This document shows positions 7,253-42,419 of a stretch of DNA of 64,000 nt, piece after piece (the first letter of the stretch is position 1; each line of letters opens with the position of its first letter). Source of the stretch: Desulfobacteraceae bacterium. Its GTDB lineage: Bacteria > Desulfobacterota > Desulfobacteria > Desulfobacterales > Desulfosalsimonadaceae. The notes under the pieces were generated by a model, which did no database searches, was not told the origin of the DNA, and saw only the letters and a list, made by a program, of their open reading frames with translations. Made by a program: the position numbers and the translations under genes. The stretch is from positions 4,039 to 68,038 of the forward strand of contig QZJS01000003.1 in NCBI GenBank assembly GCA_003597945.1, in the 5' to 3' direction.

Positions 7253-7939
7253 TCAGCCGATATCCCACCGGCCCCTGAGGGACGGCCGCTGCATGGATCT
7301 CTCCAGGATGCGCAGAAAAACAGACCGGGAAATTTCCCTGGCGCCAAGTGTTACCAGATGGGCGCTGGTGATCTGACAGTCAATAAAATCAAAATCGTTT
7401 TTCCGCAGATACGCGCACAATGCCGCCAAGGCGACCTTGGAGGCATTGGCGACCCGCGTGAACATGGATTCACCGAAAAAAACTCCGCCCAAAGAGACAC
7501 CGTAGAGACCCCCCGCCAGTTTGCCGTCCTGCCATGCCTCGATGGAATGGGCATAACCCGATGCAAACAGATCGCAATAGGCCCGGATCATATCCGAAAC
7601 GATCCAAGTGCCCGGATCATTGCGCCGCCGGGCAGCGGCACAGCAGGTAATCACCTGTTCAAAAGCATTATCGCTGGTGACCTCAAAACGATTCTGCCGG
7701 ATAATCCGGGCAAGCCGCCTGGAAATATTAAGTTCATCCGGATATAAAACAAGCCGGGGATCCGGGCACCACCAGAGAATCGGCTCGTTATGGGCAAACC
7801 AGGGAAAAATCCCCATCCGGTATGCCCTAAGTAACCGTTTCTCGCTCAAATCGCCGCCGATGGCCAGCAAGCCCACGGGATCGGCAAGGTGCGGCGGCGG
7901 GAAAGACGTTGTCTTGTCAGTGAGTTTGAAAATCGGCAT
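7253..7939 (-). CDS. aat: leucyl/phenylalanyl-tRNA--protein transferase
   Basis: 228 aa with YRMGIFPWF...PILWWCPDPR and GESMF motifs typical of Aat. It lies downstream of clpS-clpA, the classical N-end-rule cluster. Confidence 0.9.
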   Translation of the reverse strand: MPIFKLTDKTTSFPPPHLADPVGLLAIGGDLSEKRLLRAYRMGIFPWFAHNEPILWWCPDPRLVLYPDELNISRRLARIIRQNRFEVTSDNAFEQVITCCAAARRRNDPGTWIVSDMIRAYCDLFASGYAHSIEAWQDGKLAGGLYGVSLGGVFFGESMFTRVANASKVALAALCAYLRKNDFDFIDCQITSAHLVTLGAREISRSVFLRILERSMQRPSLRGRWDIG

Positions 7940-10991: not shown

Positions 10992-11142
10992 AAAGGTCAC
11001 ATATGACCACCGGCACAATATGACCTTTTTTGAATGGTTTTTGATGACCGCTCCGCAAATGATTTTTAAATTGATAATTCATAAAAATCAAAATGATGAA
11101 TCGCATATCCGCGGATAATACAGACCTGGCACGAAGATTGAA
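10992..11142 (+). promoter_or_regulatory. sigma-54 promoter cassette A (UAS + AAATCA element + -24/-12 box)
   Basis: UAS is GGTCACATATGACC (10995-11008) plus AATATGACC (11017-11025), flanked by A- and T-runs. AATCA is at 11086. TGGCAC (11127-11132)-gaaga-TTGA (11138-11141). It lies 185 nt upstream of CDS 11327. Confidence 0.7.
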
Positions 11143-18354: not shown

Positions 18355-18505
18355 AAAAAGGCCATATGTGACCATCGGTTACATATGGCCTTTTTTTGTG
18401 GGTTTAATTGTCTTCCCTGAAACCATTTTATATACCGATTATACTTAAAAATCAGTATGATGAATGGCATAGCCCTGAATAATGGAATCTGGCACAAAAT
18501 TTGAA
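18355..18505 (+). promoter_or_regulatory. sigma-54 promoter cassette B
   Basis: GGCCATATGTGACC (18360-18373) plus ATATGGCC (18383-18390) plus T-run. AATCA at 18450. TGGCAC (18490-18495)-aaaat-TTGA (18501-18504). Confidence 0.7.
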
Positions 18506-19889: not shown

Positions 19890-20127
19890 TGTTAACCCGT
19901 CATATAAATATAGAAATTTGGCCGCATATCATATTTTAGGATGTTTGAAACACTTCATCTCAATGTCCGAGCGTTCATCATATCCTGATACACCATAAAG
20001 CGGCCTGATCGGTGTAAAGGGGCAATCCGGCCCAGTTCAAGTCCCGGCCGGCTTACGCCGAATAAAAGAAAAATTGACTTTTTACAGGACCATAACTCTT
20101 GAATATGAAAAACAGGGAGGAACGGCA

Positions 20128-22500
20128 ATGTTTCATGCAAAAAAAAATATTCTTAACCAAATGATAATGTTTGGTCTTTTGGTCAGCGTGGGATTCGCCA
20201 CACTTCTTTACGGAGCCTCCCCGATAATGGCCGCCGACGCGCCGGACCTTGGCACGGCAGGCACATTTGGCGTTCTTGCAGATACCTATACCAATACGGT
20301 GGCTGGAACCACGATCAACGGCGATCTTGGGTATACTACCGGACCGGCTGTAACGCCCACGGTGAACGGCACGACACATGTGGCAGATGGTACATATGAC
20401 CAGGCAGGGTTGGATCAATCCTCCGCCTTGGCGGATCTGAACGGTCAATCCTGTATTTCTCTCGGCACCGGTGCGGTTAATCTGGACACTATAGATATTG
20501 GAAGTGGTCCGGGCGTATTTACTCCCGGGTGCTATTCCTCCGGCGGCGCAATGAATATCACCGTAAACCAGACAGTGACACTCAGTGGGCCCGGCGTTTA
20601 CATCTTCAGGCCGGGCGGGGCGCTTACTACAGGAGCCGATACCCAAATTGTCTTGGATGGTGACATCTGCGAATACGATGTATTTTGGGCTCCTGCCGGC
20701 GCTACGACAATTGGAGCAAACACTGACTTCGTGGGAAATATCCTCGACCCTGCCGGTATTACGATAGGAGCAAATGCAACCTTGGAAGGAAGAGCCCTGG
20801 GATTTGGCGGAACAGTCACGACAGATACAAATTTAATTACTGTCCCTGTTTGCCCTTTGATCTCGGCAAAGCTGGGGTTGCTAAAGACGATTGACAACAC
20901 GGGCGGCGGAACGGCGACGGTGGATCAGTTCACACTGACGGCCACCGGCAACCCATGGACCGGACCGACGATTGTCACGGGCACCTCGCCGGTGACGGCG
21001 ATCGATGCACCGGTGGGCGTCTATACGATTACTGAAACCGGGCCGGATGGGTATGTAGCTGCGTTTAGCGTCAGCGGCGGCGGCACCCTGGTCGGCAACA
21101 ATTTGACGATCACGGAGGCCGACGCGGGCAATACCATTATCGTCACCATCCACAATACATACGTTCCCGCGATCGCGGCAAAGCTGGGCTTGCTAAAGAC
21201 CATCGACAACACGGGCGGGGGTACGGCGACAGCAGGCCAGTTCACATTGACGGCCACCGGCGACGCATCCACCGGACCGACGATTGTCACGGGCACCTCG
21301 CCGGTGACAGCGGTCGATGCACCGGTGGGCGTCTATACGATTACGGAGACCGGGCCGAATGGATACATCGGTACCTTCAGCGTCAGCGGCGGCGGCACCC
21401 TGGCCGGCAACATCTTGACGATCACAGAGGCAGATGCGGGCAAGACCATTATCGTCACCATCCACAATACATACGTTCCCGCGATCGCGGCAAAGCTGGG
21501 CTTGCAAAAGACCATCGACAACACGGGCGGGGGTACGGCGACAACAGGTCAGTTCACATTGACGGCCACCGGAAACCCATGGACCGGACCGACGATAGTC
21601 ACGGGCACCTCACCGGTGACGGCGGTCAATGTACCGGTGGGCGTCTATGCGATTACGGAGACCGGGCCGGATGGATACATCGGTACGTTTAGCGTCAGCG
21701 GCGGCGGCACCCTGGTCGGCAACAATTTGACGATCACGGAGGCCGACGCGGGAAAGACTATTATCGTCACCATCCACAACACATACGTTCCCGGGATCGC
21801 GGCAAAGCTGGGCTTGCTAAAGACGATTGATAACACGGGCGGCGGAACGGCGACAGCAGGTCAGTTCACGCTGATCGCCACCGGCGACGCATCTACCGGA
21901 TCGACGATTGTCACGGGCACCTCGCCGGTGACGGCGGTCAATGTGCCGGTGGGCGTCTATACGATCACGGAAACCGGGCCGGATGGGTACATCGGTACGT
22001 TTAGCGTCAGCGGCGGCGGCGCCTTAGTCGGCAATAAACTGACGATCACGGAGGCGGATGCGGGCAAGACCATCACCGTCACCACCACCAACACATACGT
22101 TCCCGCCATCGCGACAAAGCTGGGCTTGCTAAAGACCGTGAATGGCGGAACGGCCAAGGCGGTGGATTTCACCCTGACGGCCACCGGCGACACATCCACC
22201 GGATCGACGATTGTCACGGGCACGACGCCGGTGACGGCGGTCAATGTACCGGTGGGCGTCTATACGATTACCGAGACCGGGCCGGTTGGATACACGGCCG
22301 GATTTACTGTCAGCGGCGGCACATTAGCCGGCAACAAGTTGACGATCACGGCGGCGGATGCGGGCAAAACCATTATCATTACCGTCGCCAACACCTTCTC
22401 CCCCATCCCCACGCTTTCCGAGTGGGGCATGATCATCCTCATGATGCTTGCGGGGCTTACATTCATGTATTCCCTCAAGAAACGGAAGGAAACAATTTAA
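20128..22500 (+). CDS. IPTL-CTERM-sorted surface protein: ice-binding-like (DUF3494) domain + 5 tandem 104-aa repeats
   Basis: Start at ATG 20128 (MFHAKK..., GGGAGG RBS). LGTAGTFGVLADTYTNTVAGTTINGDLGYTTGP is the DUF3494 signature. The C-terminus PIPTLSEWGMIILMMLAGLTFMYSLKKRK is an IPTLxxWG-CTERM sorting signal. Confidence 0.85.
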   Translation: MFHAKKNILNQMIMFGLLVSVGFATLLYGASPIMAADAPDLGTAGTFGVLADTYTNTVAGTTINGDLGYTTGPAVTPTVNGTTHVADGTYDQAGLDQSSALADLNGQSCISLGTGAVNLDTIDIGSGPGVFTPGCYSSGGAMNITVNQTVTLSGPGVYIFRPGGALTTGADTQIVLDGDICEYDVFWAPAGATTIGANTDFVGNILDPAGITIGANATLEGRALGFGGTVTTDTNLITVPVCPLISAKLGLLKTIDNTGGGTATVDQFTLTATGNPWTGPTIVTGTSPVTAIDAPVGVYTITETGPDGYVAAFSVSGGGTLVGNNLTITEADAGNTIIVTIHNTYVPAIAAKLGLLKTIDNTGGGTATAGQFTLTATGDASTGPTIVTGTSPVTAVDAPVGVYTITETGPNGYIGTFSVSGGGTLAGNILTITEADAGKTIIVTIHNTYVPAIAAKLGLQKTIDNTGGGTATTGQFTLTATGNPWTGPTIVTGTSPVTAVNVPVGVYAITETGPDGYIGTFSVSGGGTLVGNNLTITEADAGKTIIVTIHNTYVPGIAAKLGLLKTIDNTGGGTATAGQFTLIATGDASTGSTIVTGTSPVTAVNVPVGVYTITETGPDGYIGTFSVSGGGALVGNKLTITEADAGKTITVTTTNTYVPAIATKLGLLKTVNGGTAKAVDFTLTATGDTSTGSTIVTGTTPVTAVNVPVGVYTITETGPVGYTAGFTVSGGTLAGNKLTITAADAGKTIIITVANTFSPIPTLSEWGMIILMMLAGLTFMYSLKKRKETI
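20866..22401 (+). repeat. five tandem 312-bp coding repeats (last one 288 bp)
   Basis: Units start at 20866, 21178, 21490, 21802 and 22114, each opening GCAAAGCTGGG(C/G)TTGCTAAAGAC. Nucleotide identity between units is high. Confidence 0.9.
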
Positions 22501-23847: not shown

Positions 23848-24000
23848 AAAAAGGCCATATGCGACCATCGGTTACATGTGGCCCTTTTGTTATGGTTTTC
23901 ATACCTGTCCTGAAAGTGTTAATTATATAAATTTATTATAATAAATCAATACGATGCCATCAACGAGTCTGAGTGTTTGAAACTTGGCACAAAGATTGAA
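23848..24000 (+). promoter_or_regulatory. sigma-54 promoter cassette C
   Basis: GGCCATATGCGACC (23853-23866) plus ATGTGGCC (23876-23883). AATCA at 23944. TGGCAC (23985-23990)-aaaga-TTGA (23996-23999). Confidence 0.7.
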
Positions 24001-26516: not shown

Positions 26517-26681
26517 AAAAAAGGTACTATATGACCACAGGGTAATATGTGGCCTTTTCCCCGGAAGGGTTGATTACTTTCCTGAAAGTTCAAGCGTCTT
26601 CAAGCTTAATTAATTATACATAAAAATCAGTATTATATGAGAATATTCTATAAGAAATAGAACCCTGGCACGACAATTGAA
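26517..26681 (+). promoter_or_regulatory. sigma-54 promoter cassette D
   Basis: GGTACTATATGACC (26523-26536) plus ATGTGGCC (26547-26554). AATCA at 26625. TGGCAC (26666-26671)-gacaa-TTGA (26677-26680). The UAS-to-promoter spacer is 10 bp longer than in the other cassettes. Confidence 0.7.
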
Positions 26682-29640: not shown

Positions 29641-31227
29641 ATGTTCTGGAAAAGGACCACCAAAAAATCCCTGGAATACGCCGAAAGCATCATCGACACC
29701 GTGCGTGAACCCTTGATCGCGCTGGACCAGGACTTAAGAGTGGTCTCCGTCAGCCGCTCCTTTTATGAGGTTTTTAAGGTATTCCCTGAAGAGACGGTAG
29801 GCAAGCTCATCTATGATCTTGGCAATAAACAGTGGAATATCCCAAAGCTGCGGGAACTGCTGGAAACCATCCTTCCCCAAAAAACAACCTTTGATAATTA
29901 TGAGGTTGAACACGATTTTTCTGAAATCGGCAGGCGTATCATGCTGTTGAATGCCCGGCAAATTAAAAGTGTGTTGGGCAAAAACCGGATTATCCTCCTG
30001 GCTATCGAGGATATCACAGCGCGCAGAGAGATCGAAAAAGGGCTGGAAAAAGCCCGTAAGGAACTGGCGGACACAAAAATATCCGAAGACGAAGCCCGCG
30101 AATACGCCGAGAGCATCATCAACACCATACGGGAACCCTTAATCGTTCTGGATCAGGATTTAAGGGCCGTCACCGCCAGCCGTTCCTTCTATGAATTCTT
30201 TAAGGTAAATCCTGAAGAGACCCTGGGACAGCTTATTTATGATCTGGGCAATAAGCAGTGGAATATTCCCAAGCTGCGGGAGCTTCTGGAAACCATCCTC
30301 CCCAAAAGAACAACTTTTGAAGACTATGAAGTTGAACACGATTTTGCGACCATCGGAAGGCGCATCATGCTGTTGAATGCCCGCCAGATTAAAAGAGTAT
30401 GGGGAAAAGATCGGATTATCCTTCTGGCCATTGAGGACATCACCGAACGCCGGGAGACAGAAAACGGGCTGGAAAAGGCCAATGAAGAACTAACGGATCT
30501 GGCCGCCGAATTAAACCGCGTCGCCCGGGCAAAATCTGAATTTTTAGCCAATATGTCCCATGAGCTCAGGACCCCGCTCAACTCCATTATCGGTTTTTCT
30601 GAAGTATTATACGACGAGACTTTCGGCGTGCTGAATGAGAAGCAGAAAAAATATGTGAATAATGTTTTGACCAGCGGCAAGCACCTTCTTTTACTCATCA
30701 ATCAGATACTGGATATGGCAAAAGTCGAATCCGGAAAGATGAATCTGACATTATCCCAATTATCCATAAAAAACCTCCTGAATGAAATTTCCATGCTGGT
30801 AGAGGATATGGTCGGTAAAAAGAAGCTTCACCTATCGCTGGAAATCGCCGAAGACCTGCCGGATATTGAGGCGGATGAGCTCAAGGTAAAAGAGATCATT
30901 TACAACCTGCTTTCCAACGCAGTGAAGTTTACCCCGGAAGGAGGTAAAATCGGCATTCGGGCGACGAAATCCGATTCCGAGATAAAAATAGTCGTCTGGG
31001 ATACAGGCGTCGGTCTCGCACCGGAAAATATGGAGAAAATATTTGAAGGATTTTTCCGTGTGGATACCCCTTATTCCCGTGTAACCGAGGGGACCGGGCT
31101 GGGTTTGCCGCTGTCCAAAAAGCTGGTTGAGCTGCACGGAGGAAATTTTTCAGTTCTATCCGATGGTCTCGATAAGGGCACTTCGGTCCTGCTTACATTG
31201 CCGATTGTATCGGTTCAGGGGGTGTGA
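29641..31227 (+). CDS. sensor histidine kinase with two tandem PAS modules
   Basis: 528 aa: duplicated PAS units, HisKA (FLANMSHELRTPLNSIIGFSE) and HATPase_c (GTGLGLPLSKKLVELHGG). Confidence 0.9.
   Translation: MFWKRTTKKSLEYAESIIDTVREPLIALDQDLRVVSVSRSFYEVFKVFPEETVGKLIYDLGNKQWNIPKLRELLETILPQKTTFDNYEVEHDFSEIGRRIMLLNARQIKSVLGKNRIILLAIEDITARREIEKGLEKARKELADTKISEDEAREYAESIINTIREPLIVLDQDLRAVTASRSFYEFFKVNPEETLGQLIYDLGNKQWNIPKLRELLETILPKRTTFEDYEVEHDFATIGRRIMLLNARQIKRVWGKDRIILLAIEDITERRETENGLEKANEELTDLAAELNRVARAKSEFLANMSHELRTPLNSIIGFSEVLYDETFGVLNEKQKKYVNNVLTSGKHLLLLINQILDMAKVESGKMNLTLSQLSIKNLLNEISMLVEDMVGKKKLHLSLEIAEDLPDIEADELKVKEIIYNLLSNAVKFTPEGGKIGIRATKSDSEIKIVVWDTGVGLAPENMEKIFEGFFRVDTPYSRVTEGTGLGLPLSKKLVELHGGNFSVLSDGLDKGTSVLLTLPIVSVQGV
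29674..30525 (+). repeat. 2 x 426-bp tandem duplication encoding the PAS modules
   Basis: GAATACGCCGA(A/G)AGCATCATC... begins at 29674 and again at 30100. Protein units are roughly 75-80% identical by eye. Confidence 0.85.
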
Positions 31228-31228
31228 G

Positions 31229-31597
31229 ATGGGAAAGAAAGCATTGGTTGTCGATGATAATGCAAACAATCTTCTGCTGGAAAAAGATCTTTTGGAGGTC
31301 GCAGGCTTTACCGTATTTGAAGCTGAAAATGCCGCCGATGGAATTGCCGCCGCCCGGAGAGAAAAACCGGACATTATACTGATGGACGTACGGCTGCCGG
31401 ATATGCGCGGCACCGAAGCCGCCAGAATATTGCGCCAAGACGAGGAGACGGTTGATATTCCCATTGTTTTTGTGACTTCTTCCGTAATGGCGGAGGGCAT
31501 AGAAGAGATAAAAGACATAAATAGCAGCGGATTTATCGGAAAGCCCATCAATACGCGCACTTTTGTGGAAGAAATCAGCCAATTTATCAGGCATTGA
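31229..31597 (+). CDS. single-domain response regulator (CheY-like receiver)
   Basis: MGKKALVVDDNANNLLL...PDIILMDVRLPDMRG. The ATG at 31229 is 1 nt after the kinase stop. Confidence 0.85.
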   Translation: MGKKALVVDDNANNLLLEKDLLEVAGFTVFEAENAADGIAAARREKPDIILMDVRLPDMRGTEAARILRQDEETVDIPIVFVTSSVMAEGIEEIKDINSSGFIGKPINTRTFVEEISQFIRH

Positions 31598-31644
31598 GTG
31601 AATTCTCCAATATTTTGAAAAATCAAATTCAAAAGAGGCAGCGG

Positions 31645-32700
31645 ATGAAAGACAAACCCGTAATCTTAGTCGTGGATGACCAGTCCCAAAACATTGAACT
31701 TCTCGAGGCGTATCTTGTTCCGCAGGGGTATGGAATCGTCACGGCGGCCAGCGGTGAAGAAGCGCTGGAAAAACTTTCCGGAAATTCAATCGATCTGATT
31801 CTGCTCGACGTCATGATGCCCGGCATGAATGGGTTTGAAGTTACCCGCCGGGTCCGGCAGGACAACGCCCATCGACTCCTTCCGATCATCCTGGTTACCT
31901 CATTGCGGGGAACCGAAGACCGGGTCAAGGGAATTGAAGCCGGTTGTGATGATTTCATTTCAAAGCCGATCGAAAAGGTTGAGATTTTAGCCCGGGTCCG
32001 GTCCCTGCTGAAGGTCAAGGCATACAACGATTTGATGAGTCATTACCGGAAAGATCTGGAGGCTGAAGTCGCCGCAAGAACCGAGGAATTAAAGCAAGCC
32101 TTTGAGAAGATAAAAGCCGCTTCGCTGGAAACGATTTACCGTCTGTCTAAGGCCGCTGAGTATAAGGACAAGGACACGGGCGCACATATCCAGCGCATGA
32201 GCCTTTATTCCGCTGCCCTTGCCCGCCGCATGGGGCTGGACGAAAGTACTATTGAATCCATTCTTTATGCAGCGCCCATGCATGACTTGGGCAAGATCGG
32301 CATACCCGATGGCATATTGTTGAAACCAACCCGGCTTGACGCGGCGGAATGGGAAATTATGAAGCTGCATTCGGTTATCGGAGCTGAAATCCTCAAGGGT
32401 TCGGACGCGGAATTCATCAGGATGGGAGAAACCATCGCCCTCTGCCATCATGAGAAGTGGGATGGAAGCGGCTATCCAAACGGCCTGAAGGGTATCGAGA
32501 TACCCATTGCCGGCCGCATCGCGGCAATCGCGGATGTATTCGACGCCCTGACCTCCAGGCGGCCTTATAAGGAACCATTCTGTATTGAGCATTCACTGGC
32601 CGTTATTAAGAAAGGACGGGGAGTCCACTTTGACCCGGATGTGGCGGATGCGTTCTTTGCCATCAAGGAAGAGATACTCACTGTTTTTTTGATTCAGTAA
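31645..32700 (+). CDS. response regulator with HD-GYP domain (RpfG-type, putative c-di-GMP phosphodiesterase)
   Basis: Receiver (ILVVDDQSQN...LILLDVMMPGMNG) plus HDLGKIGIPD and HHEKWDGSGYP motifs. The track's TTG start at 31594 is an alternative. Confidence 0.85.
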   Translation: MKDKPVILVVDDQSQNIELLEAYLVPQGYGIVTAASGEEALEKLSGNSIDLILLDVMMPGMNGFEVTRRVRQDNAHRLLPIILVTSLRGTEDRVKGIEAGCDDFISKPIEKVEILARVRSLLKVKAYNDLMSHYRKDLEAEVAARTEELKQAFEKIKAASLETIYRLSKAAEYKDKDTGAHIQRMSLYSAALARRMGLDESTIESILYAAPMHDLGKIGIPDGILLKPTRLDAAEWEIMKLHSVIGAEILKGSDAEFIRMGETIALCHHEKWDGSGYPNGLKGIEIPIAGRIAAIADVFDALTSRRPYKEPFCIEHSLAVIKKGRGVHFDPDVADAFFAIKEEILTVFLIQ

Positions 32701-32816: not shown

Positions 32817-32966
32817 AAAAAGGTCATATATGACCATTCGGTAAAATATGACCTTTTTTTTGAGATGCGGACAGCCATACCATAAATCATTAATTGATTA
32901 TTATACTAAATAATCAGATATTTATATTTTGTTCCCCGAGGTTGAAATCATGGCATACAAATTGAA
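32817..32966 (+). promoter_or_regulatory. sigma-54 promoter cassette E
   Basis: GGTCATATATGACC (32822-32835, a perfect palindrome) plus ATATGACC (32846-32853) plus T8. AATCA at 32912. TGGCAT (32951-32956)-acaaa-TTGA (32962-32965). Confidence 0.65.
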
Positions 32967-33142
32967 AGTATAAGCAATGGACTTTTTTGGGGGTCGTGCC
33001 CTTCCGGCGCAAAATAAACCTGTCAACACGCCAACGATCACCACGGAAGTCCATACGGAAATAACCACAACGTCCACCATAGGCGCACGCCCAAGAGGGA
33101 ATGTTCAACAATTCGAATAAAAGCTATAAGGAGGTACCGGGA

Positions 33143-34618
33143 ATGTTTCATGCCATAAAGATTCTTAACCGAAGGATAAGATGTATCCTTTTACTGAGCC
33201 TGGGATTTGCCGCGCTCGTTTTCATGGGGCCGGTTGCAGCCCTCGGGGCCGGCCCGGCGCCAGTCGATCTTGGGTCCGCGGGTAATTTCGTGATTCTGGC
33301 GGAAACAGGGATTACAAACACCGGAAGTCATACTTCTGTTATAACCGGGGACATCGGCAATAGTCCCGGCTCTGCCGCCCAGATGAATGATGTATGGTGT
33401 TCAGAAATCACCGGAACAATTTACGGTGTTGATGCGGCCTATACAGGTAGCGGCGATACAACATGTTTTGCCGGCAACCCGCCTCTTGCCAACAAGACCT
33501 TGGTGGATAATGCGGTTGGCGATATGCTGACTGCTTACAATAACGCAGCCTCAGTAGTCGCTCCCGCTCCTGTCACCGAACTGGGTGCCGGAAATATTGG
33601 CGGAATGACCCTTGCTCCCGGACTCTACAAATGGAGCACTGACGTCAACATAGCCGACAACCTTACTCTCTCCGGTGGTGCAAGCGATGTTTGGATTTTA
33701 CAGATAGCCGGAGATCTAAATGTCGCCTCGGCTGGCAGCGTCGCTACCGGCATTAAGGTAATACTAAGCGGCGGCGCCCTGGCCTCGAATGTCTTTTGGC
33801 AGGTCGGGGGTGTTACCGGCGCAACTCTCGGGACATACGCCACCTTCAATGGAACGATATTGAGCGCAAAGCAGATTATTTGCCAAACCGGCGCGGTACT
33901 AAACGGCAGGGCATTGGCGCAAACTCAGGTTACGCTCGATGCCAACGTAGTCACCAATGTTGCCGGTTGTCCGCCCATTACACTCCTGCCATCGGTTCTT
34001 CCGGCAGGAATGGTTGGAGCCGCCTATAGCCAGACGATCACGGCCAGCGGCGGAGCAGAACCGTATACATTCACCATGACCGCCGGGGCCCTTCCGACCG
34101 GGCTATCGCCGATTACAACCGGCGGGGTTATCGCCGGAACGCCTACTGCCACAGGCACTTTTACGTTCACGGTCACGGCCGCGGACGCCAACGGCTGCAC
34201 GGGCTCACAGGCCTACACCCTCGTCATCAATGCTGACGGTTGTCCACCCATTGCACTCCTGCCCACGGTTCTTCCGGAAGGAATGGTGGGAGCCGCCTAT
34301 AACCAGACGATCACGGCCAGCGGCGGAGCAGAACCGTATACGTTCATCATGACCGCCGGAGCCCTTCCGATCGGGCTATCGCCGATTACAACCGGCGGGG
34401 TTATCGCCGGGACGCCTACTGCCACAGGCACGTTTACGTTCACGGTTACGGCCACAGACCAAAACGGGTGTACGGGCCTGCAGGCCTACACTCTCATCAT
34501 CAACGCTGCACCTCCCGCTCCCATACCCACGCTTTCCGAGTGGGGAATGATCATCCTCATGACGATTATGGGCCTCACATCCATTTATTACCTGAGGAGA
34601 AGGAAGGTGGATTTCTAA
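33143..34618 (+). CDS. IPTL-CTERM-sorted surface protein: ice-binding-like (DUF3494) domain + 2 Ig-like repeats
   Basis: Start at ATG 33143 (MFHAIK..., AAGGAGG RBS). LGSAGNFVILAETGITNTG...ITGDIGNSPGSA is the DUF3494 signature. The C-terminus is PIPTLSEWGMIILMTIMGLTSIYYLRRRK. Confidence 0.85.
   Translation: MFHAIKILNRRIRCILLLSLGFAALVFMGPVAALGAGPAPVDLGSAGNFVILAETGITNTGSHTSVITGDIGNSPGSAAQMNDVWCSEITGTIYGVDAAYTGSGDTTCFAGNPPLANKTLVDNAVGDMLTAYNNAASVVAPAPVTELGAGNIGGMTLAPGLYKWSTDVNIADNLTLSGGASDVWILQIAGDLNVASAGSVATGIKVILSGGALASNVFWQVGGVTGATLGTYATFNGTILSAKQIICQTGAVLNGRALAQTQVTLDANVVTNVAGCPPITLLPSVLPAGMVGAAYSQTITASGGAEPYTFTMTAGALPTGLSPITTGGVIAGTPTATGTFTFTVTAADANGCTGSQAYTLVINADGCPPIALLPTVLPEGMVGAAYNQTITASGGAEPYTFIMTAGALPIGLSPITTGGVIAGTPTATGTFTFTVTATDQNGCTGLQAYTLIINAAPPAPIPTLSEWGMIILMTIMGLTSIYYLRRRKVDF
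33965..34510 (+). repeat. 2 x 273-bp tandem coding repeat (putative Ig-like domains)
   Basis: GGTTGTCC(G/A)CCCATT(A/G)CACTCCTGCC... occurs at 33965 and 34238. Each unit encodes GCPPI.LLP.VLP.GMVGAAY.QTITASGGAEPYTF. Confidence 0.85.
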
Positions 34619-34740: not shown

Positions 34741-34893
34741 AAAAGATTATATACGACCTTAGGTCAAATATGACCTTTTTTTACAGAACAATCAAGTACC
34801 GGCCGGTGAATGGATTATAAGTGTATTATTGTTTAAAATCATAAGGATAGGATACATAATCCTGCGTATTGAAAACCTGGCACAAAAATTGAA
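34741..34893 (+). promoter_or_regulatory. sigma-54 promoter cassette F
   Basis: GATTATATACGACC (34745-34758) plus GGTCAAATATGACC (34762-34775) plus T-run. AATCA at 34837. TGGCAC (34878-34883)-aaaaa-TTGA (34889-34892). Confidence 0.7.
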
Positions 34894-35042
34894 TTCCTAA
34901 GCGGAAGGTAAAAGACAAGGCCAAACAGGTCGTCGACATCATCGACGGCAACAATGATCTCGAAGCCGAAGGCAAAGAAAAAAATTTGGAAGGAAAAATC
35001 CAGAAAAAGCTCGGTCAGATCAAGAAAGTGATGGATAAATAA
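34893..35042 (+). pseudogene. 5'-truncated csbD-like remnant
   Basis: 49 codons with no start codon: ...KVKDKAKQVVDIIDGNNDLEAEGKEKNLEGKIQKKLGQIKKVMDK*. This aligns with residues ~17-59 of the intact CsbD at 43431-43610. The frame is closed by the TGA inside the -12 box of cassette F. Confidence 0.55.
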
Positions 35043-35117: not shown

Positions 35118-35630
35118 ATGAAAAAACTGATGATTTTGCTGATCGTAATATCCATGTTCTTTGTCGTACCCGCCGCCATTGCATACCAGCAAGGAGATTA
35201 TGAATTGACATTGGGCGGCAGCGGCTCCAGCGACGAAAGCTTTGATGGCACCGTGTTCAATATTGAAGCCGGCCTGGGATATTTCATAACCGAAAATTTT
35301 GAAGCCGTGTGGCGGCAAGGGATTTCATATGCCGACAACCCCGGCAATAACGACTGGAATGCGTCCACCCGTTTATCCCTGGATTATAATTTCAATATGG
35401 GGAGCTGGTATCCCTACCTTGGCGTTAATATCGGCTATTTATACGGCGATACGGTCGAGGAACAATTTATCGCGGGACCCGAAGCCGGCGTAAAAATTTT
35501 TGTTAACGAAACCACCTTCATCCTCGCCGGTATCGAATACCAGTTTCTCTTCGAAAACCCGAAAGACGCGGATGATAATTTCGACGATGGGCGGTTTGTC
35601 TACCTTTTGGGAATCGGCTTTACGTTTTAA
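35118..35630 (+). CDS. small outer-membrane beta-barrel protein
   Basis: 170 aa with signal peptide (VVPAAIA), alternating aromatic/Gly strands and the C-terminal GIGFTF. Confidence 0.7.
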   Translation: MKKLMILLIVISMFFVVPAAIAYQQGDYELTLGGSGSSDESFDGTVFNIEAGLGYFITENFEAVWRQGISYADNPGNNDWNASTRLSLDYNFNMGSWYPYLGVNIGYLYGDTVEEQFIAGPEAGVKIFVNETTFILAGIEYQFLFENPKDADDNFDDGRFVYLLGIGFTF

Positions 35631-35771: not shown

Positions 35772-36317
35772 ATGACTATGTCGGACACAAATTGCGAAAC
35801 CCAGCTTCGCACCGCCGGAAGCGAACTGAACCGTCGGATTATCCCGAAAAATATGTCGACCGGACATGGCGAAACCATTCTGGTTGTAGATGATGATGTC
35901 GCCATTCTGAATCTGGTCAGAGATTGCCTCCAACGACTGGGCTACGTCGTGCTGACAGCCGATAGACCCTTTGAGGCCATACGATTGGCGGAAAAGCATA
36001 TCCAAAAGATTCGCCTGGTGATCACCGACGTCATCATGCCCGAAATGAACGGGCGGGAATTGACCATACGGCTGATGTCGCTGAAACCGGATCTCAAACA
36101 CCTGTTCATGTCCGGCTACACGGCTGATGTGATCGGCGACCGGGGCGTGATGGAGGGTGGTGGCAGCTTCATTCAAAAGCCTTTTACCATGAAGGCTCTT
36201 GCCGCCAAGGTATGCGAAATGCTGACCGAAAAAAAGGTAGAAGACAATAGCCCTTCAAAAGGCCATATAAGACCTTTTTTTATGTGTTTCAGCGAAAAAA
36301 CGTCACTAATCACTTGA
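35772..36317 (+). CDS. stand-alone response-regulator receiver protein
   Basis: ILVVDDDVAILNLV...LVITDVIMPEMNGREL...LFMSGYT. There is no output domain. The true start may be an internal Met. Confidence 0.8.
   Translation: MTMSDTNCETQLRTAGSELNRRIIPKNMSTGHGETILVVDDDVAILNLVRDCLQRLGYVVLTADRPFEAIRLAEKHIQKIRLVITDVIMPEMNGRELTIRLMSLKPDLKHLFMSGYTADVIGDRGVMEGGGSFIQKPFTMKALAAKVCEMLTEKKVEDNSPSKGHIRPFFMCFSEKTSLIT
36261..36281 (+). promoter_or_regulatory. UAS-like site upstream of kaiC (palindrome-like 14-mer + T-run, no sigma-54 box found)
   Basis: GGCCATATAAGACC-TTTTTTT matches the cassette 14-mer at 12/14 positions. It lacks the third half-site, the AAATCA element and TGGCAC downstream. Confidence 0.3.
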
Positions 36318-36487
36318 ATATAAATTAAAATTGGGTTATGATTTTTTTTGTAAAAAATAACAACCGGATGATACGGCTTGGGCCGTCACAAAGGCATCAG
36401 GGTTTGCGGCAAGTTCGACGGTGACGTGAACGCGATACATCGTCGTTTGCGCTCGCGGCGTTTCTTTAAAGAAAAAAATATTGGGAG

Positions 36488-38248
36488 ATGATGATGGTTA
36501 AGGCAAAACATGATCTTGCCGGGATTGAAAAATGCCCGACGGGCATCCGGGGTCTTGATGAGATCACCAACGGCGGTCTTCCGAAAGGCAGGCCTACCCT
36601 GATCTGCGGCGGCGCGGGTTCCGGCAAGACGCTGTTTGCAATGGAATTTCTGATGCATGGCGCCATAAAATACGGAGAACCCGGGGTCTTCATGACCTTT
36701 GAGGAAACGCCGCAGGATCTCGCCAAAAACTTCTTCTCCCTTGGTTTTGATCTGCCTGAAATGATGTCGCGTGGCCTGATCGAAACCGATCATGTAAGCA
36801 TCACGCGCGGCGAAATCGAGGAGACGGGAGAATACGACCTGGAAGGACTGTTCATCCGCCTGGGCGCCGCCATTGATGCCATCGGCGCCAAGCGGGTTGT
36901 CTTAGACACCATCGAAGCCCTTTTCTCCGAGCTGCCCAATGCCACGATCCTCCGGGCCGAGCTGCGGCGGCTTTTTCTCTGGTTGAAAGAGCGCGGCGTG
37001 ACGGCCATTGTTACGGGGGAAAGCGGCGACAAGACCCTGACGCGATACGGACTTGAAGAATATGTCGCCGATTGCGTGATTCTTTTAGACTTCCGCATTG
37101 TCGAGCAAATCGCCACCCGCCGGTTGCGTATCGTCAAGTATCGCGGCTCGGCGCATGGGGCGGACGAATATCCCTTCCTGATCGACGAGGACGGCATCTC
37201 GGTCCTTCCCATCACTTCCCTGGGGCTCGACTACCCCGTTTCCAAGGAACGCATCTCCACGGGCGTCCCCAAACTGGATGCCATGCTCGGCGGCAAGGGG
37301 TTCTTCCGGGGCAGCACCATCCTCCTATCCGGTACCGCGGGCACCGGCAAAACGAGTTTGTCGGGGACCTTTGCCGATGCCGCCTGCCGGCGGGGCGAAC
37401 GATGCCTCTATTTCGCCTTTGAGGAATCTCCCCGGCAGATCATACGCAACATGGAGTCCATCGGCCTGGATCTCGACCAATGGGTAAAAAAGGGACTTCT
37501 CAAGTTTCATTCCGCCCGTCCCACCCTTTGCGGTCTGGAGATGCATCTGGTCACCTTCCACAAGGTGATTGAAGCGTTTAAGCCCCGGATTTTCATTGTA
37601 GACCCCATCAGCAACCTGATTAACGCCGGAACCGCGCCGGAGGTCAAATCCGTCTTAACGCGCCTGATCGACTATCTGAAGATGAACAAGATTTCGACTT
37701 TCCTTACGGATCTCACCCATTTCGGAAGCAGCCTTGAGCGCACGAGCGAAGAGATCTCTTCGCTCATCGATACGTGGCTTCTCTTAAGAGATATCGAACT
37801 CAAGGGCGAACGCAACCGGGGGCTCTACATTTTAAAATCCAGGGGCATGAATCACTCCAACCAGATTCAGGAATTTTTGATCACAAACCAGGGCATCGAC
37901 CTGGTCGATATCTATACCGGTTCCGGCGAGGCATTAACCGGCAGCGCCCGGGCCGCCCAGGAAGCGCGGGAAAAGGCATTGGAAATGGAGCGTCGGCATG
38001 AGGCGGATCGCATACGCCGCGACCAGGAGCGCAAGCGCAAAGCCCTTGAAGCAAAAATCGACGCCCTGCGCGCCGAATTTGACGCGGAATCCGAAGAACT
38101 CGATTTTTTAAGGGAAGAAGAAAAGAAAAGAGAAGAAGTTGTTGCCCAGGAACAGTTGAAGATGAAAAACCTTCGCAAGGGGAAACACGCGGCTGACCAA
38201 GAAAAAGCCCCAAAAAGAAAGGCGAACGGGAAAAGGAAAGGAGCCTGA
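36488..38248 (+). CDS. kaiC: circadian-clock-type ATPase/autokinase KaiC with long C-terminal coiled-coil extension
   Basis: 586 aa. CI has GGAGSGKT and FEET. CII has GTAGTGKT and [18 protein letters not shown] aligns with the cyanobacterial HISTITDTIILLQY phosphosite region. The last ~100 aa are highly charged and helical. Confidence 0.95.
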
Positions 38249-38249
38249 G

Positions 38250-38579
38250 ATGACGTCCACATCGCCGGAAATACAAAAGAAGGCAAAGACCGATTCAATG
38301 GAGGAAACCTGGAACCTTCGCTTATATGTAGCCGGTCAGACCCCCAAATCGATTACCGCTTTTGCGAATCTGAAAAAAATCTGCGAAGAGCATCTTGCCG
38401 GCAAATACCGCATTGAGGTGGTAGACCTTTTAATCAATCCCCAGCTTGCCAAAGGGGACCAGATTATTGCCATACCGACACTGGTCAGAAAACTTCCCGA
38501 GCCCCTTAAAAAAATCATCGGGGATCTGGCCAACACGGAACGCGTGCTGGTGGGACTCGATATTCGCCCTGCCTCCTGA
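38250..38579 (+). CDS. kaiB: KaiB (copy 1)
   Basis: [71 protein letters not shown]. The ATG is 1 nt after the kaiC stop. Confidence 0.9.
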
Positions 38580-38620
38580 TGATAAAATTAGGATGCCAAT
38601 CATGAAATGGAATATCAATC

Positions 38621-38953
38621 ATGAAAAAGAAAACAGGGAATACCGCCGCCGATGAATTGGAAAAATCAAATAACCCGGAGAAGCACGTTCTTATTTTGTA
38701 TGTTGCCGGCATGACGCCGAAATCAAGCGTGGCAATCGACAATGTAAGGAAATTTTGTGAAAATAACCTTCAAGGACGCTATGAACTGAAGGTGATCGAC
38801 CTCTACCAGCAGCCCGAGCTGGCCCAAGAAACCCAGATTGTCGCTACCCCGACGCTGATCAAGGAACTCCCGCTCCCCTTGCGAAAACTCATCGGCGATA
38901 TGTCGGATACCCAAAGGATTCTTGTGGGCATGGATCTGAAACCCGGAAATTGA
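38621..38953 (+). CDS. kaiB: KaiB (copy 2)
   Basis: [71 protein letters not shown]. Confidence 0.9.
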
Positions 38954-38966
38954 CGATTACGAATCC

Positions 38967-40970
38967 ATGAATAAACCGCGAAAAACAGAGCAGGAACTTT
39001 TACATGAGCTTGAAGAGCTCAGATCCCGGCTAACGGAAGCCGATGACACGTTGCGCGCCATCCGAACGGGTGAAGTGGATGCCCTGGTGGTCTCGACCGT
39101 CGAAGGAGATCGTATTTTTACGCTTTCGGGCGCCGACCGCCCTTACCGGATGATGGTGGAGACCATGAACGAAGGCGCCGTCACCCTGGCCGTCGACGGA
39201 ACGATCCTTTTCTGCAACCAGCGTTTTGCGGACATCATCAAAACGCCTCTTGAAGAAGTCATCGGAACTTTGTTCCGGAAATATATTTCCCCAACAGACC
39301 ATCACATCTTTGAAGCAATAATTGCACGATGTGGGAAGGTTAACTGCACGACGGAACTGGAATTACAGACCGGGTGTGGGAAATCCGCTCCCGCCCTGCT
39401 CTCCGTAAGCCCCCTTAGGCAGGCCGATGTCCCCGGTTCGATGTGCGCGGTGATCACCGATCTGTCGAAACAAAAACGCAATGAAGAAATGCTGGCTGAA
39501 GAAAGACTGACAACCCAGCTTCTCCAGCAAACCTCGGAACTTTTTTTTATCTGCGACAGCAGGGGCCGTATTATCCGCGCCAGCCAGTCGGCTATCGGGG
39601 TTTTGGGCAGAACCCCGGTTTTTGAGGAATTTGATGAGGTATTTCACCTCCTTTATCCCGACGGGACGCCTTTTATTCTTCGTTCTGAAATACGCAAAAA
39701 ATTTCTCCACGGCGTGGAGGTCGTTTTCACCAACGGGGGGATTGAATCCTGTTTTCTGTTAAGCGCAAATCCGCTGATCAATCGTCAGGAAATCATCGGA
39801 ATTGTTGTCGTCATCGTGGACATCACGGACCGTAAAAACATGGAGGAGAAAATTCAAAAATCCCATGACGAGCTCGAAACCCTGGTTGAGGCGCGAACGG
39901 CCGAACTTTTGATCGCAAAAAAAGCGGCGGAAGAAGGAAGACAAGTCGCCGAGGCATCTCTTTTAGAAATAAAAAAGTTAAAAGAACAACTGGAAGCGGA
40001 AAGAGCCTATCTGCAGGAAGAGATTAAACTGGAGTATAACCATGAAAACATTATCGGTCAAAGCGACGGGCTCAAATACGTACTCTTTAAAATCGAACAA
40101 ATCGCCGCCACCGACACCACCGTAATGATTCTTGGCGAGACGGGAGTCGGCAAGGAACTGGCCGCCCGGGCCATTCACGACTTGAGCTTGCGCAAAAACC
40201 GGGCCCTGGTGAAAGTCAATTGCGCCGCGCTTCCCTCAAACCTGATCGAAAGCGAATTGTTCGGCCATGAGAAAGGCGCTTTCACCGGTGCTCATATCAA
40301 ACGGCTGGGACGCTTTGAGATTGCCGACGGCGCCACCCTGTTTTTGGATGAAATCGGTGAATTACCGCTGGAACTCCAATCAAAGCTGCTTCGCGTGCTC
40401 CAGGACGGCGAGTTTGAGCGGCTGGGCGGCACACGCACCATCAAAGTCGATACGCGGATTATTGCCGCCACCAATCGGAATCTGGAAGCGGAAGTCGACA
40501 AGGGCGGTTTCCGTAAGGACCTCTGGTATCGGCTCAATATTTTTCCGATTACCATGCCGCCGCTCCGGGATCGCCTGGATGACATACCCATGCTTGTAGA
40601 TTATTACGTCAAAAAAATTTCAAAGCGGATGGGTAAGACCATTGAACTTATACCCGATAACGTCATGAATACGCTGCGAGCGTATCACTGGCCGGGAAAT
40701 GTCCGGGAATTGGAAAACGTCCTTGAGCGCGCGGTGATCAACTCATCAGGGTCAAAACTGCGCCTGGCTGATGAGCTCAAGACGCCGTTTAAGCGCTTAT
40801 GCATCGACCACAAAACCCTTGAAGCCGTTGAACGAGACTATATTGTTCAAGTCCTCGAAGAAACCGGGTGGAAAGTCGGCGGAAAAAACAGCGCGGCTGA
40901 AATCCTTGGGCTCAAACGAAGCACCCTGCGCGCCCGCATGCGCAAACTCGATATCCGGAAACCAACATAG
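38967..40970 (+). CDS. sigma-54-dependent transcriptional activator (bEBP): coiled coil + 2 PAS + AAA+ + Fis-type HTH, no receiver domain
   Basis: 667 aa with [15 protein letters not shown] Walker [16 protein letters not shown] (GAFTGA loop), [13 protein letters not shown], and the C-terminal [22 protein letters not shown]. It starts 13 nt after the kaiB2 stop. Confidence 0.95.
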
Positions 40971-41054: not shown

Positions 41055-41207
41055 AAAAAAAACCATATATGGCCGCCGGGTAAATATGGCCTTTTTTCTG
41101 CCCTGTCGCCGATTGTTCCGTAAATTCATATTATCGTGATTATTATTTAAAATCAGGATAATAGGCGATACTTTGCCAGGCATTTGAGACCTGGCACAAA
41201 GTGTGCA
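41055..41207 (+). promoter_or_regulatory. sigma-54 promoter cassette G
   Basis: AACCATATATGGCC (41061-41074) plus ATATGGCC (41084-41091) plus T-run. AATCA at 41151. TGGCAC (41192-41197)-aaagt-GTGCA (41203-41207). This is the only copy with a canonical -12 GC. Confidence 0.75.
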
Positions 41208-41326
41208 GCTAAGTTGCATTAGACGTGGATAGGCCGAAACGACTCCCCAACTGTATCGAGGCGTTAAGCAGGCCGAGTCGATATGCCCACCCATCGGGTA
41301 AACAAATCCATTCTGGAGATGGCGTT

Positions 41327-42271
41327 ATGTATATGACGGGAAGTGATGTTAATCATAATGTTCAACAAGTCTTAGATCCTGAATTGCCTGCGGCCGAGAT
41401 AGCGTCGTTTCGGATCGATCCGTTAAAACGGTATATGTTTGAGATCGGGCAATGCAAAGTGCTTCCACGGGATGAACAAAACAATCTTGCCATTCGTTAT
41501 CAGGAAAATCATGAACCTGAAGCAATTACATTACTGGTCACGTCGAATTTGCGACTGGTGTTTAAAATCGCAAGGGACTTTCAGCGGCCCTGGATGCAGA
41601 ATCTGCAGGATTTGATCCAGGAAGGGAATCTCGGGCTCATTCGGGCGGCCGAGAAATTCGATCCTTATCGCGGCGTCAAATTCTCATATTACGCTTCTTT
41701 CTGGATCAAAGCGTATATATTGAAATTTATATTAGATAACTGGCGATTGGTCAAAATCGGCACCACGGGAGCCCAGCGCAAGCTCTTTTTCAGGCTCAAC
41801 AAGGAAAAGGAAAAATTGATCAACGAAGGATTTGAGCCTGAGCCCGGACTTTTATCCCAGAGACTCGGTTTATCCCATAAAGATGTCGTTGACATGGATC
41901 AACGCTTAAATTCCTGGGATGTATCCCTGAATGAACCTGTTAAAGAATATTCGAATAAGGAGATGATCAATTATATTCCCGCGGAAAACAAATCGCCTGA
42001 AGAGCAAATCGCCGACAACCAAATCCAGGAACTCCTGCATCAAAAAATTAATGAATTCAAATCCACAATTACCCCTAGAGAATGTGAAATATTCGAAAAA
42101 CGCATCTTTACCGAAGACCCCGTCACTTTACAGAAACTTGGGGGCCGTTTTGGAATTACCAGGGAAAGGGTCCGCCAGGTGGAGAAAGAAATTATCCATA
42201 AAATCAAAATATTTTTTGAGCGTGAAATACCGGATTTTCAAAATTTGCCTCGGTATGGAGCATCCGTATAG
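41327..42271 (+). CDS. rpoH: RpoH-like (sigma-32 type) sigma-70-family sigma factor
   Basis: Region 2 reads DLIQEGNLGLIRAAEKFDP. An RpoH-box-like QRKLFFRLNKEK is present. Region 4 reads GITRERVRQVEKEII. I chose the ATG at 41327 (GGAGA RBS). The track's GTG at 41225 would lie within roughly 20 nt of the -12 element. Confidence 0.8.
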   Translation: MYMTGSDVNHNVQQVLDPELPAAEIASFRIDPLKRYMFEIGQCKVLPRDEQNNLAIRYQENHEPEAITLLVTSNLRLVFKIARDFQRPWMQNLQDLIQEGNLGLIRAAEKFDPYRGVKFSYYASFWIKAYILKFILDNWRLVKIGTTGAQRKLFFRLNKEKEKLINEGFEPEPGLLSQRLGLSHKDVVDMDQRLNSWDVSLNEPVKEYSNKEMINYIPAENKSPEEQIADNQIQELLHQKINEFKSTITPRECEIFEKRIFTEDPVTLQKLGGRFGITRERVRQVEKEIIHKIKIFFEREIPDFQNLPRYGASV

Positions 42272-42419
42272 GGCCATATGTGGCCGTGAGATAAAATGTG
42301 ACCTTTTTAATGAGGCGTTAATGGTTGCCCCGAGTAAAATTTCAAAACCAATTATTAATATAAATCAGAATGATAAGCAATATTTAGCTTGGTTTTAAAA
42401 ACCTGGCACAAAGATTGAA
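42270..42419 (+). promoter_or_regulatory. sigma-54 promoter cassette H
   Basis: GGCCATATGTGGCC (42272-42285) plus ATGTGACC (42296-42303) plus T-run. AATCA at 42363. TGGCAC (42404-42409)-aaaga-TTGA (42415-42418). The UAS abuts the rpoH-like stop codon. Confidence 0.7.

Follow-up and report, generated by a model that had tools for sequence, protein, structure and literature searches.

An operon joining kaiC and two kaiB genes to a sigma-54 activator gene in a Desulfobacteraceae bacterium: a probable Kai-to-sigma-54 coupling

This study deals with a four-gene operon—kaiC, kaiB-1, kaiB-2 and the gene of a PAS/sigma-54 activator, i.e. an enhancer-binding protein—from a Desulfobacteraceae bacterium (assembly GCA_003597945.1, contig QZJS01000003.1, positions 4,039-68,038 of the forward strand); this stretch of 64,000 nucleotides (nt) is called here the window, and related loci from other genomes are given by numbers with the prefix L. 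As far as can be judged from sequence, the locus belongs to the known family of kaiC-kaiB-PAS/histidine kinase operons, the kinase output having been swapped for a sigma-54 activator. A real functional coupling between the Kai proteins and this activator is assigned a probability of roughly 80%; the full chain, with Kai upstream of the activator and eight sigma-54 promoter cassettes as its targets, is held with less assurance, at somewhat better than even odds. The arrangement is frequent in the databases and common in the relatives of sulfate reducers, i.e. it is no one-off, and no published description of it was found: a full-text literature search yielded no paper linking Kai proteins to sigma-54 or to enhancer-binding proteins, in agreement with an earlier sequence-only reading of this DNA, which knew of no such coupling.

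The four open reading frames (ORFs) lie on the + strand with spacers of 1, 41 and 13 nt (Table 1). The Sigma54_activat domain of the activator (PF00158, residues 362-528) scores 234.7 bits; it is preceded by a PAS domain (60-167) and a second, PAS_9 stretch and followed by AAA_lid_14 and HTH_8 (617-661). The motifs GETGVGK at 390, GAFTGA at 437-442 and LFLDE at 458 were found, the protein thus possessing an AAA+ domain with Walker A and B, the GAFTGA loop and a C-terminal helix-turn-helix (HTH). No receiver domain was detected in it by Pfam and NCBIfam scans and no kinase domain by the Pfam scan, its output consisting of Sigma54_activat and HTH_8, and it is the sole sigma-54 activator encoded in the window. 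The sequence-only reading had described precisely this—the operon with its spacers, two KaiB paralogues, a KaiC with both Walker A boxes, both Glu-Glu pairs and a Ser-Ser phosphosite, and a complete receiver-less enhancer-binding protein with GAFTGA loop, Fis-type HTH and two PAS domains—and the ORFs, the Pfam matches (PF07689 for both KaiBs) and the motif scan bear it out. Its statement that the window contains no SasA/CikA-type kinase has to be corrected in detail, as a PAS-PAS-HisKA-HATPase kinase is present at 29641-31227; what stands is that this kinase carries neither the Kai-linked module described below nor a KaiB-like domain. The KaiB-like thioredoxin-fold domain of a SasA-type output was found by the Pfam scan neither in the activator nor in the kinase of the window.

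Concerning the Kai proteins themselves, KaiC matches PF06745 in two stretches (8e-109) and the NCBIfam model NF006799 with 737 bits (cutoff 408), remaining below the cyanobacterial KaiC model TIGR02655 (356.7 bits, cutoff 546.25). Its best PDB match is 8DBA, the KaiC of Rhodobacter sphaeroides (643 bits, residues 11-550). It consists of two tandem RecA-like domains with Walker A boxes at 41-48 and 282-289 and Glu-Glu pairs at 72-73 and 312-313; the Ser-Ser pair 424-425 aligns both with S413/S414 of 8DBA and with the Glu-Glu phosphomimetic of 8FWI, and the alignment with 8DBA runs on through residues 486-550 of a coiled-coil tail spanning approximately 486-586. The protein is therefore classified, by sequence, as the R. 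sphaeroides hourglass type, with coiled-coil tail, Ser-Ser phosphosite and no need for KaiA. Both KaiBs score well with PF07689 (92.3 and 92.1 bits, cutoff 27), stay slightly under the NCBIfam equivalog NF006798 (101.6 and 97.9 bits, cutoff 110), are closest to R. sphaeroides KaiB (8FWJ, 107 bits each) and keep the predicted fold-switch G-x-D positions as VGLD and VGMD. The KaiBC system of R. sphaeroides is a KaiA-independent hourglass, in which KaiC autophosphorylates unaided and the ATP/ADP ratio resets the timer, KaiB binding the post-hydrolysis state of KaiC and accelerating dephosphorylation at low ATP/ADP (PMC10076222). The absence of kaiA is thus expected; the sequence-only reading had claimed it for the window, and it holds for the scanned ORFs, in none of which a KaiA domain was found, the small ORFs not having been scanned exhaustively.

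The first ~300 amino acids (aa) of the activator represent a conserved portable module that stands directly after kaiB irrespective of the output fused to it. A query with the first 358 aa retrieved relatives that are 50-63% identical over the first ~300 aa and differ in their C-terminal halves, these being a sigma-54 AAA+ half, a HisKA_3/HATPase kinase or a GerE-type HTH; one locus was looked up per output type, and all three modules lie directly 3' of kaiC-kaiB-kaiB. Elsewhere the module is fused to HisKA, HisKA_3, HWE, GerE or sigma-54 AAA+ outputs. The family signature A-I/L-x-x-G-E-V-D-A is present in the window protein, and the gap between kaiB and module gene—13 nt here—is typically 17 nt elsewhere. 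Conservation is highest in the N-terminal ~60 aa, outside every Pfam PAS match; an invariant Cys and PAS cores of the usual kind are further features of the module. Compared as a profile with PDB sequences, it retrieved generic PAS domains only (phytochrome, BMAL1), with no solved relative and no KaiB-PAS complex among them. Against 1.84 billion representative sequences the profile found 3,329 proteins at E <= 1e-30, nearly all of the top 150 having the module at the extreme N-terminus. Among 65 matches scanned with Pfam there were 43 kinases (HisKA 22, HisKA_3 12, HisKA_2 8, HWE 4), three sigma-54 activators, one GGDEF and one HD protein. Even distant members of the family are encoded 3' of kaiB, and in 1.7 Mb of fetched loci, a biased sample, the signature motif lies within 700 nt after kaiB in 123 of its 130 occurrences.

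The module-side census, made with a module-only alignment as query, comprises 80 loci out of 198 relatives in reference genomes, one per species, by a ranking that favours relatives of the sigma-54-type query. Most of the loci belong to the Thermodesulfobacteriota—Desulfobacterales, Syntrophales/Smithella and Desulfomonilia—with single cases from Planctomycetia, Acidobacteriota, Ignavibacteriales, Chloroflexota, Binatia and Methylobacter. Where at least 3 kb of upstream sequence is available (n = 59), KaiC is encoded in 56 and two KaiBs in 57 loci, immediately upstream and on the same strand; in this census a KaiB of the KaiB-1 type invariably precedes one of the KaiB-2 type. The 47 loci with enough downstream sequence divide into 38 with sigma-54, six with kinase, two with GerE and one with unknown output, the sigma-54 form being dominant in the Thermodesulfobacteriota. 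A less biased picture is given by the census from the KaiC side, i.e. the count of kaiC neighbourhoods that the sequence-only reading had proposed, based on metagenomes with 42 informative loci: the module follows kaiB in 36 of the 42 and the output is of the sigma-54 type in 10. The latter was found in 6/9 of the loci whose KaiC is nearest to that of the window (at least 75% identity); the more distant ones (58-66%, n = 33) exhibit a kinase in 19 cases, a sigma-54 output only in two and a tandem of module-kinase and module-activator in two.

The nearest known counterpart is the purple-bacterial operon. Plasmid pRSKD131A of Cereibacter (Rhodobacter) sphaeroides KD131 has the annotated order kaiC, kaiB, HWE histidine kinase, and the N-terminus of that kinase is 29% identical to the window module over 294 aa (E = 2e-28), including the same ...EETLxAIRxGxVDALVV signature. 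KD131 is reportedly the strain from which the characterised KaiBC comes. In Pararhizobium the order is kaiC-kaiB-kaiB followed by a module-kinase-receiver fusion. A "kaiC-B-PAS/HK operon" has already been named for R. palustris and R. sphaeroides (PMC4794148), and outside cyanobacteria PAS genes are often co-operonic with kaiBC (PMC9478674). The window thus resembles the purple-bacterial operons of KD131 and R. palustris in the type of KaiC, the closest KaiB, the gene order and the homologous module after kaiB; it differs in having two KaiB paralogues instead of one, in its host from a non-phototrophic, Desulfobacteraceae-like lineage of anaerobes, and in an output made of a sigma-54 AAA+ domain with Fis-type HTH rather than an HWE/HisKA kinase, so that no phosphorelay is needed. 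The cyanobacterial SasA/CikA-RpaA route likewise leads from the state of the KaiC/KaiB complex to transcription, but it relies on phosphotransfer to a response regulator and on a thioredoxin-fold, KaiB-like domain in SasA or a pseudo-receiver in CikA; no output domains of the SasA/CikA/RpaA type were found in the kai operon proteins with Pfam and NCBIfam, and KaiA is absent. In the Pseudomonas KaiC-like/histidine kinase/response regulator modules, a KaiC homologue is also encoded with a PAS signalling protein, binds the kinase probably via PAS and affects stress resistance; these modules, however, have no KaiB, no sigma-54 link and a kinase with a single-domain receiver as output. Receiver-less enhancer-binding proteins (NifA, NorR, XylR/DmpR, PrpR and FhlA, as well as PspF, via PspA in trans) share with the window the control of AAA+ by an N-terminal sensory region and the succession of putative enhancer, IHF-like block and candidate -24/-12 element; they differ in that the input proposed here is a KaiB/KaiC timer from the same operon, not a ligand or phosphoryl group, and in that the -12 element here is without the canonical C.

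With regard to the Kai protein contacted, the pair of "kaiB + module gene" behaves as a unit that is repeated or stands alone in some genomes. L054 (6127-11965) and L109 (5001-10653) have the order kaiC-kaiB1-kaiB2-[module-HisKA_3 kinase]-kaiB-[module-sigma-54 activator]; in L016, a complete genome, a second pair of kaiB2 and module-histidine kinase lies 4 kb off, with no second kaiC; and L013 (9648-13280, a metagenome-assembled genome of Planctomycetia) has kaiB2-[module-activator] with no kaiC nearby. It should be noted that the AAA+ domain in L013 matches in two pieces ~1.3 kb apart, an insertion or an assembly problem being possible, and that L122 has two module genes in tandem without a third kaiB. 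In a mirror-tree analysis of 39 loci with all four proteins, using partial correlation controlled for KaiC and a Mantel test, the KaiB-1 distances track those of KaiC (r = 0.91) and show no covariation with the module after the control (-0.03, p = 0.74); KaiB-2, the faster-evolving paralogue, retains a partial correlation with the module of 0.23 (p = 0.001). KaiB, and especially KaiB-2, is therefore the probable partner and candidate adaptor to the output protein—a preference based on the kaiB-module units, on the covariation of KaiB-2 with the module and on the Synechococcus elongatus protein KidA, the PAS domains of which bind fold-switched KaiB, with an altered clock period as a consequence of KidA action (PMC9478674).

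The same precedent leads to the idea that the PAS protein acts on the clock, i.e. that the module tunes the fold-switching of KaiB or the cycling of KaiC and that the activity of the activator depends on a signal sensed via PAS (small molecule, redox or light). KidA, a PAS signalling protein contacting the Kai system through its N-terminal PAS and altering the period, agrees with this, as do the PAS domains of the activator, generic by Pfam, and the invariant Cys and typical PAS cores, which could bind a ligand. KidA is a period-tuning multi-PAS GGDEF/EAL protein with cyclic di-GMP domains, encoded outside the kai operon. Against the idea it counts that the module never occurs without a signalling output (kinase, HTH or AAA+) attached, that its gene closes the operon, where an output would be expected, and that it belongs to the only candidate output protein encoded with these KaiBC systems. 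Taken as the whole explanation, an action on the clock is thus considered unlikely, the two roles nevertheless being compatible with each other.

The proposed targets of the Kai-linked activator are eight cassettes, all of them intergenic, positioned ahead of + strand genes and built on one composite layout. Exact TGGCAC-N5-TTGA sequences occur six times on the + strand of the window, against 0.11 expected by chance, and two variants, at 32951 (TGGCAT at -24) and 41192 (GTGC at -12), complete the eight cassettes that the sequence-only reading had counted. Six cassettes have TGGCAC at -24 with exact spacing, and the -12 is TTGA or TTGT, not the canonical TTGC; such a C-less -12 is unusual among sigma-54 promoters and specific to this regulon. 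The distal element, ~105-125 nt upstream of the GG, consists of two tandem palindromic 14-mers, GGTCAtATaTGACC-N3-4-GGTnAnATATGACC, i.e. GGTCA-N4-TGACC sites that may be regarded as putative enhancers. It is followed in the middle of the cassette by an AT-rich, IHF-like block, TTATTAnTAAAAATCAnnATGAT, and then by the -24/-12 element; IHF sites occupy that mid position in classical sigma-54 promoters. The core 8-mer ATRTGRCC is found 32 times in the window against 7.8 expected, 21 of these in the eight enhancers or in the site upstream of kaiC.

The link between cassettes and activator comes from the subtype of the latter. Its AAA+/HTH half is of a subtype, designated "A", that also occurs in PAS activators standing alone and lacking the Kai module. 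In AAA+ the latter share 76-83% identity with it, most Kai-linked activators (subtype "B") being ~65% identical. Both subtypes occur Kai-linked and type A also stands alone, so that the sigma-54 output has seemingly been joined to the module at least twice, or exchanged. Among 165 loci, cassettes accompany a type-A HTH in 7/9 and occur without it in 4/156 (Fisher p = 2e-8), and in six loci a cassette lies 175-360 nt after the stop codon of the type-A activator, the same position as that of 41061-41206 in the window. These sequence associations support the view that the cassettes have their cognate regulators in type-A activators, the Kai-linked one included. They may have further regulators besides the latter, and it may be asked whether they are mainly under another type-A activator elsewhere in the genome, working with a PAS kinase as in L003/L030, the Kai-linked one competing, sharing sites or having other targets. 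This appears improbable: stand-alone type-A activators do adjoin identical cassettes in other genomes, L020 and L021 carry both forms and the PAS kinase is inside one cassette unit of the window, yet the 64 kb with all eight cassettes encode only the Kai-linked activator, a cassette comes directly after its stop codon, as with type-A activators, and the L006 orthologue has the same layout.

As to the expression of the kai operon itself, a search of the DNA 5' of kaiC, here and at 20 related loci, gave no sigma-54 core, and the operon is more likely to be read from a sigma-70-type promoter. Ahead of this promoter stands one enhancer-like site, which resembles the first half-enhancer GGCTATATAAGACC of the L020/L021 cassettes and suggests feedback by the activator. 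The leader between promoter and kaiC holds a short hairpin with T-run at 36441-36470 and could be an attenuator or RNA element; Rfam gave no match on the whole window, the leader thus not being a known RNA family. Three ATG codons in a row (36488-36496) stand right behind GGGAG at the start of kaiC, as they do in L006, and translation probably begins at the second or third of them. The enhancer-like site bears on another explanation, namely that of co-expression only, according to which the cell requires all four genes in the same situations, or kai transcription is governed by the activator, with no contact between Kai proteins and activator. Transcription from the upstream cassette 34745-34892 may also read through into the operon, and operon membership alone does not prove an interaction. 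Nevertheless, the position of the module behind kaiB is maintained in several phyla and with at least five types of output, pairs of kaiB and module gene exist without kaiC, KaiB-2 and the module covary beyond shared phylogeny, and there are experimental precedents for both PAS-KaiB and PAS-KaiC binding; little credence is therefore given to co-expression only. The suggestion of the sequence-only reading that the Kai module is functionally wired to the sigma-54 activator is backed by comparative genomics, that is, by the position of the module after kaiC-kaiB-kaiB, the censuses, the units of kaiB and module gene, the covariation and the link between cassettes and activator subtype.

Several points weigh against a Kai-gated activator acting on these cassettes. 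What speaks for the coupling is drawn wholly from gene order, shared domains and covariation, and physical gating, its direction and the Kai protein contacted are inferred. The mirror-tree analysis gave a modest signal, of a sort that phylogeny can inflate. The loci L116, L133 and L149 have one gene of KaiB1 type and still carry the module gene, so that KaiB-2 cannot be an obligatory partner; the module could also contact KaiC directly, and an exclusive role of KaiB-2 is opposed by the Pseudomonas KaiC-like protein, which influences stress resistance and binds to the neighbouring kinase at the PAS domain of the latter (bioRxiv 10.1101/2022.01.26.477890). The AlphaFold2 model of the module, made with a 10-sequence alignment and used for the layout of secondary structure only, is of low confidence, with a predicted local distance difference test score (pLDDT) of 57. 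Concerning the cassettes, stand-alone type-A activators adjoin identical ones in L003, L030 and L055 and, as second copies, in L020 and L021, so that a second activator of the same cassettes could exist outside the window; rpoN is not in the window; and the canonical C is missing from the -12 element (TTGA/TTGT) here and in L003, L006, L020, L021, L030 and L055. Finally, the palindromes of the window lie between runs of A and T and fold into hairpins (-10 to -32 kcal/mol), and some of them may also, or instead, act as terminators. A role as terminators only was rejected: distant genomes keep both 14-mers but often lose the A/T runs, which points to protein binding, and the kaiC-upstream copy of L006 lies behind a separate strong hairpin.

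The transcription units behind the cassettes (Table 1) resemble, by their predicted products, a programme for the envelope and general stress that includes a sigma cascade, and BON, DUF4398 and RpoH-like genes recur near Kai-module loci of other genomes. The RpoH-like factor of the sigma-70 family lies directly behind cassette c41192, implying a sigma-54 to RpoH-like cascade; its listed GTG start at 41225 is too near the promoter, so that the real start is probably an ATG ~100 nt downstream. The PAS kinase and a receiver-HD(-GYP-like) protein end the unit of the cassette at 26523, and through them the putative Kai/sigma-54 regulon may thus supply another signalling pathway; the PAS of this kinase resembles that of the stand-alone type-A activators in L003 and L030. 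A stand-alone receiver is encoded 170 nt upstream of kaiC, and neither the Kai-linked module nor a KaiB-like domain was found in it, in the kinase or in the receiver-HD protein.

Some further features of the locus may be added. The CsbD-like frame at 34893-35042 reaches 29 bits, under the Pfam cutoff, covers profile positions 8-51, has no canonical start and begins at the promoter; it may be a truncated or unconventional gene. Ice-binding-like IPTL-CTERM proteins are encoded at 20074-22500 and 33101-34618, each in a cassette unit, one with five SpaA-like domains and the other with He_PIG Ig-like repeats; the IPTL-CTERM sorting signals are present, and no sorting enzyme was found in the window. 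Housekeeping genes on both sides indicate that the island is chromosomal. An anti-phage defence system was considered and rejected, PADLOC having given only generic AAA/RtcR-like matches and a weak 38-bit mad8 match over one P-loop region. In other genomes, CheB-CheR-PAS_10 fusions and PAS-GerE regulators flank the kinase- and GerE-type Kai loci (L002 10775-13414, L003 1603-4188), and an additional PAS-GerE gene lies 5' of kaiC in L003, L030, L034, L054 and L109.

Table 1. Features of the kai operon, its upstream region and the sigma-54 cassettes (positions in the window)
Feature	Position	Strand	Remarks
Enhancer-like single site GGCCATATAAGACC + T-run	36261-36281 (site 36261-36274)	+	Conserved with L006
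Sigma-70-type promoter candidate TTGAAT-N17-TATGAT	36314-36342	+	Promoter scan; in L006 TTGATA-N17-TATGAT
Conserved leader, ~140 nt	36343-36487	+	Between promoter and kaiC; L006 equivalent ~7330-7560
kaiC	36488-38248	+	586 aa; ORF, Pfam, NCBIfam, motifs, PDB match 8DBA
kaiB-1	38250-38579	+	109 aa; PF07689; keeps first position across loci
kaiB-2	38621-38953	+	110 aa; PF07689; directly 5' of module gene
Activator gene	38967-40970	+	667 aa; sigma-54 activator, last gene of kai operon
Activator, Kai-linked input module	38967-39866	+	aa 1-300: N-terminal signature helix, beta-hairpin, PAS, linker helix, PAS
Activator, output half, subtype "A"	39867-40970	+	Coiled-coil linker aa ~287-358, AAA+, AAA lid, Fis-type HTH
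Cassette c11127	10995-11141	+	TGGCACGAAGATTGA; precedes DUF2959, OmpA-like, GDSL lipase, DUF748, DUF1318 genes
Cassette c18490	18360-18504	+	Precedes FadL-like outer-membrane protein, ice-binding-like/IPTL-CTERM surface protein
Cassette c23985	23853-23999	+	Precedes small coiled-coil, DUF883/ElaB-like (weak), YqjE-like membrane proteins, DUF2914
Cassette c26666	26523-26680	+	Precedes DUF11 surface protein, PAS kinase 29641-31227, receiver-HD 31594-32700
Cassette c32951	32822-32965	+	-24 is TGGCAT; precedes ice-binding-like/IPTL-CTERM protein 33101-34618
Cassette c34878	34745-34892	+	Precedes CsbD-like frame, outer-membrane beta-barrel protein 35118-35630, stand-alone receiver 35772-36317
Cassette c41192	41061-41206	+	TGGCACAAAGTGTGC; right after activator gene, precedes RpoH-like sigma gene 41225-42271
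Cassette c42404	42272-42418	+	Precedes triple-BON (OsmY-like), DUF4398, DUF4398-OmpA genes

In the mechanism proposed for the Kai-linked activator, KaiC would autophosphorylate without KaiA at high ATP/ADP, as in R. sphaeroides; as the ratio falls, KaiB would bind to the post-hydrolysis CI ring and dephosphorylation would follow, the hourglass reporting both energy state and time. The module of the dimeric activator would bind KaiB—most likely fold-switched KaiB-2, possibly on the KaiC ring—and this binding would alter the PAS/coiled-coil dimer that holds the AAA+ domains off, thereby setting hexamer assembly and ATPase. An active hexamer on the tandem sites, with looping aided at the IHF-like block, would open sigma-54 complexes at the eight transcription units for envelope and stress proteins, the PAS kinase/HD pair and the RpoH-like sigma factor, the last extending the response as a sigma cascade, and through the related single site 5' of the sigma-70-type promoter the activator would feed back on the kai operon. 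Our guess is that activation on energy depletion is the likelier direction, the content of the regulon favouring it. It may be further suggested, quite tentatively and as something rather doubtful, that KaiB-2, six-fold on the KaiC ring at low ATP/ADP, recruits three activator dimers and so templates or blocks the hexamer, the ~60-aa signature being the KaiB-binding element. If true, a phosphorelay-free Kai hourglass would switch a sigma-54 stress and envelope regulon with an RpoH-like cascade in non-phototrophic anaerobes, and the signature would be an unnamed portable KaiB-binding element in kinases, LuxR-type regulators and sigma-54 activators.

The kinases encoded next to KaiBC outside cyanobacteria have, to our knowledge, no known targets. 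Here the output protein is a transcription factor itself, with its likely DNA sites and target genes adjoining, and the timer probably switches the neighbouring stress and envelope genes directly on or off. The locus thus offers a concrete, testable regulon—stress and envelope proteins together with an RpoH-like sigma factor—for a non-cyanobacterial Kai timer, and it defines a portable Kai-linked input module common to kinases, LuxR-type regulators and sigma-54 activators. For the latter it would mean a novel class of input, in which a protein timer, or a sensor of energy state, takes the place of phosphorylation or ligand. It also suggests that stress responses gated by time or energy are widespread among the sulfate-reducing and syntrophic Thermodesulfobacteriota, i.e. 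in organisms that do not live by light.

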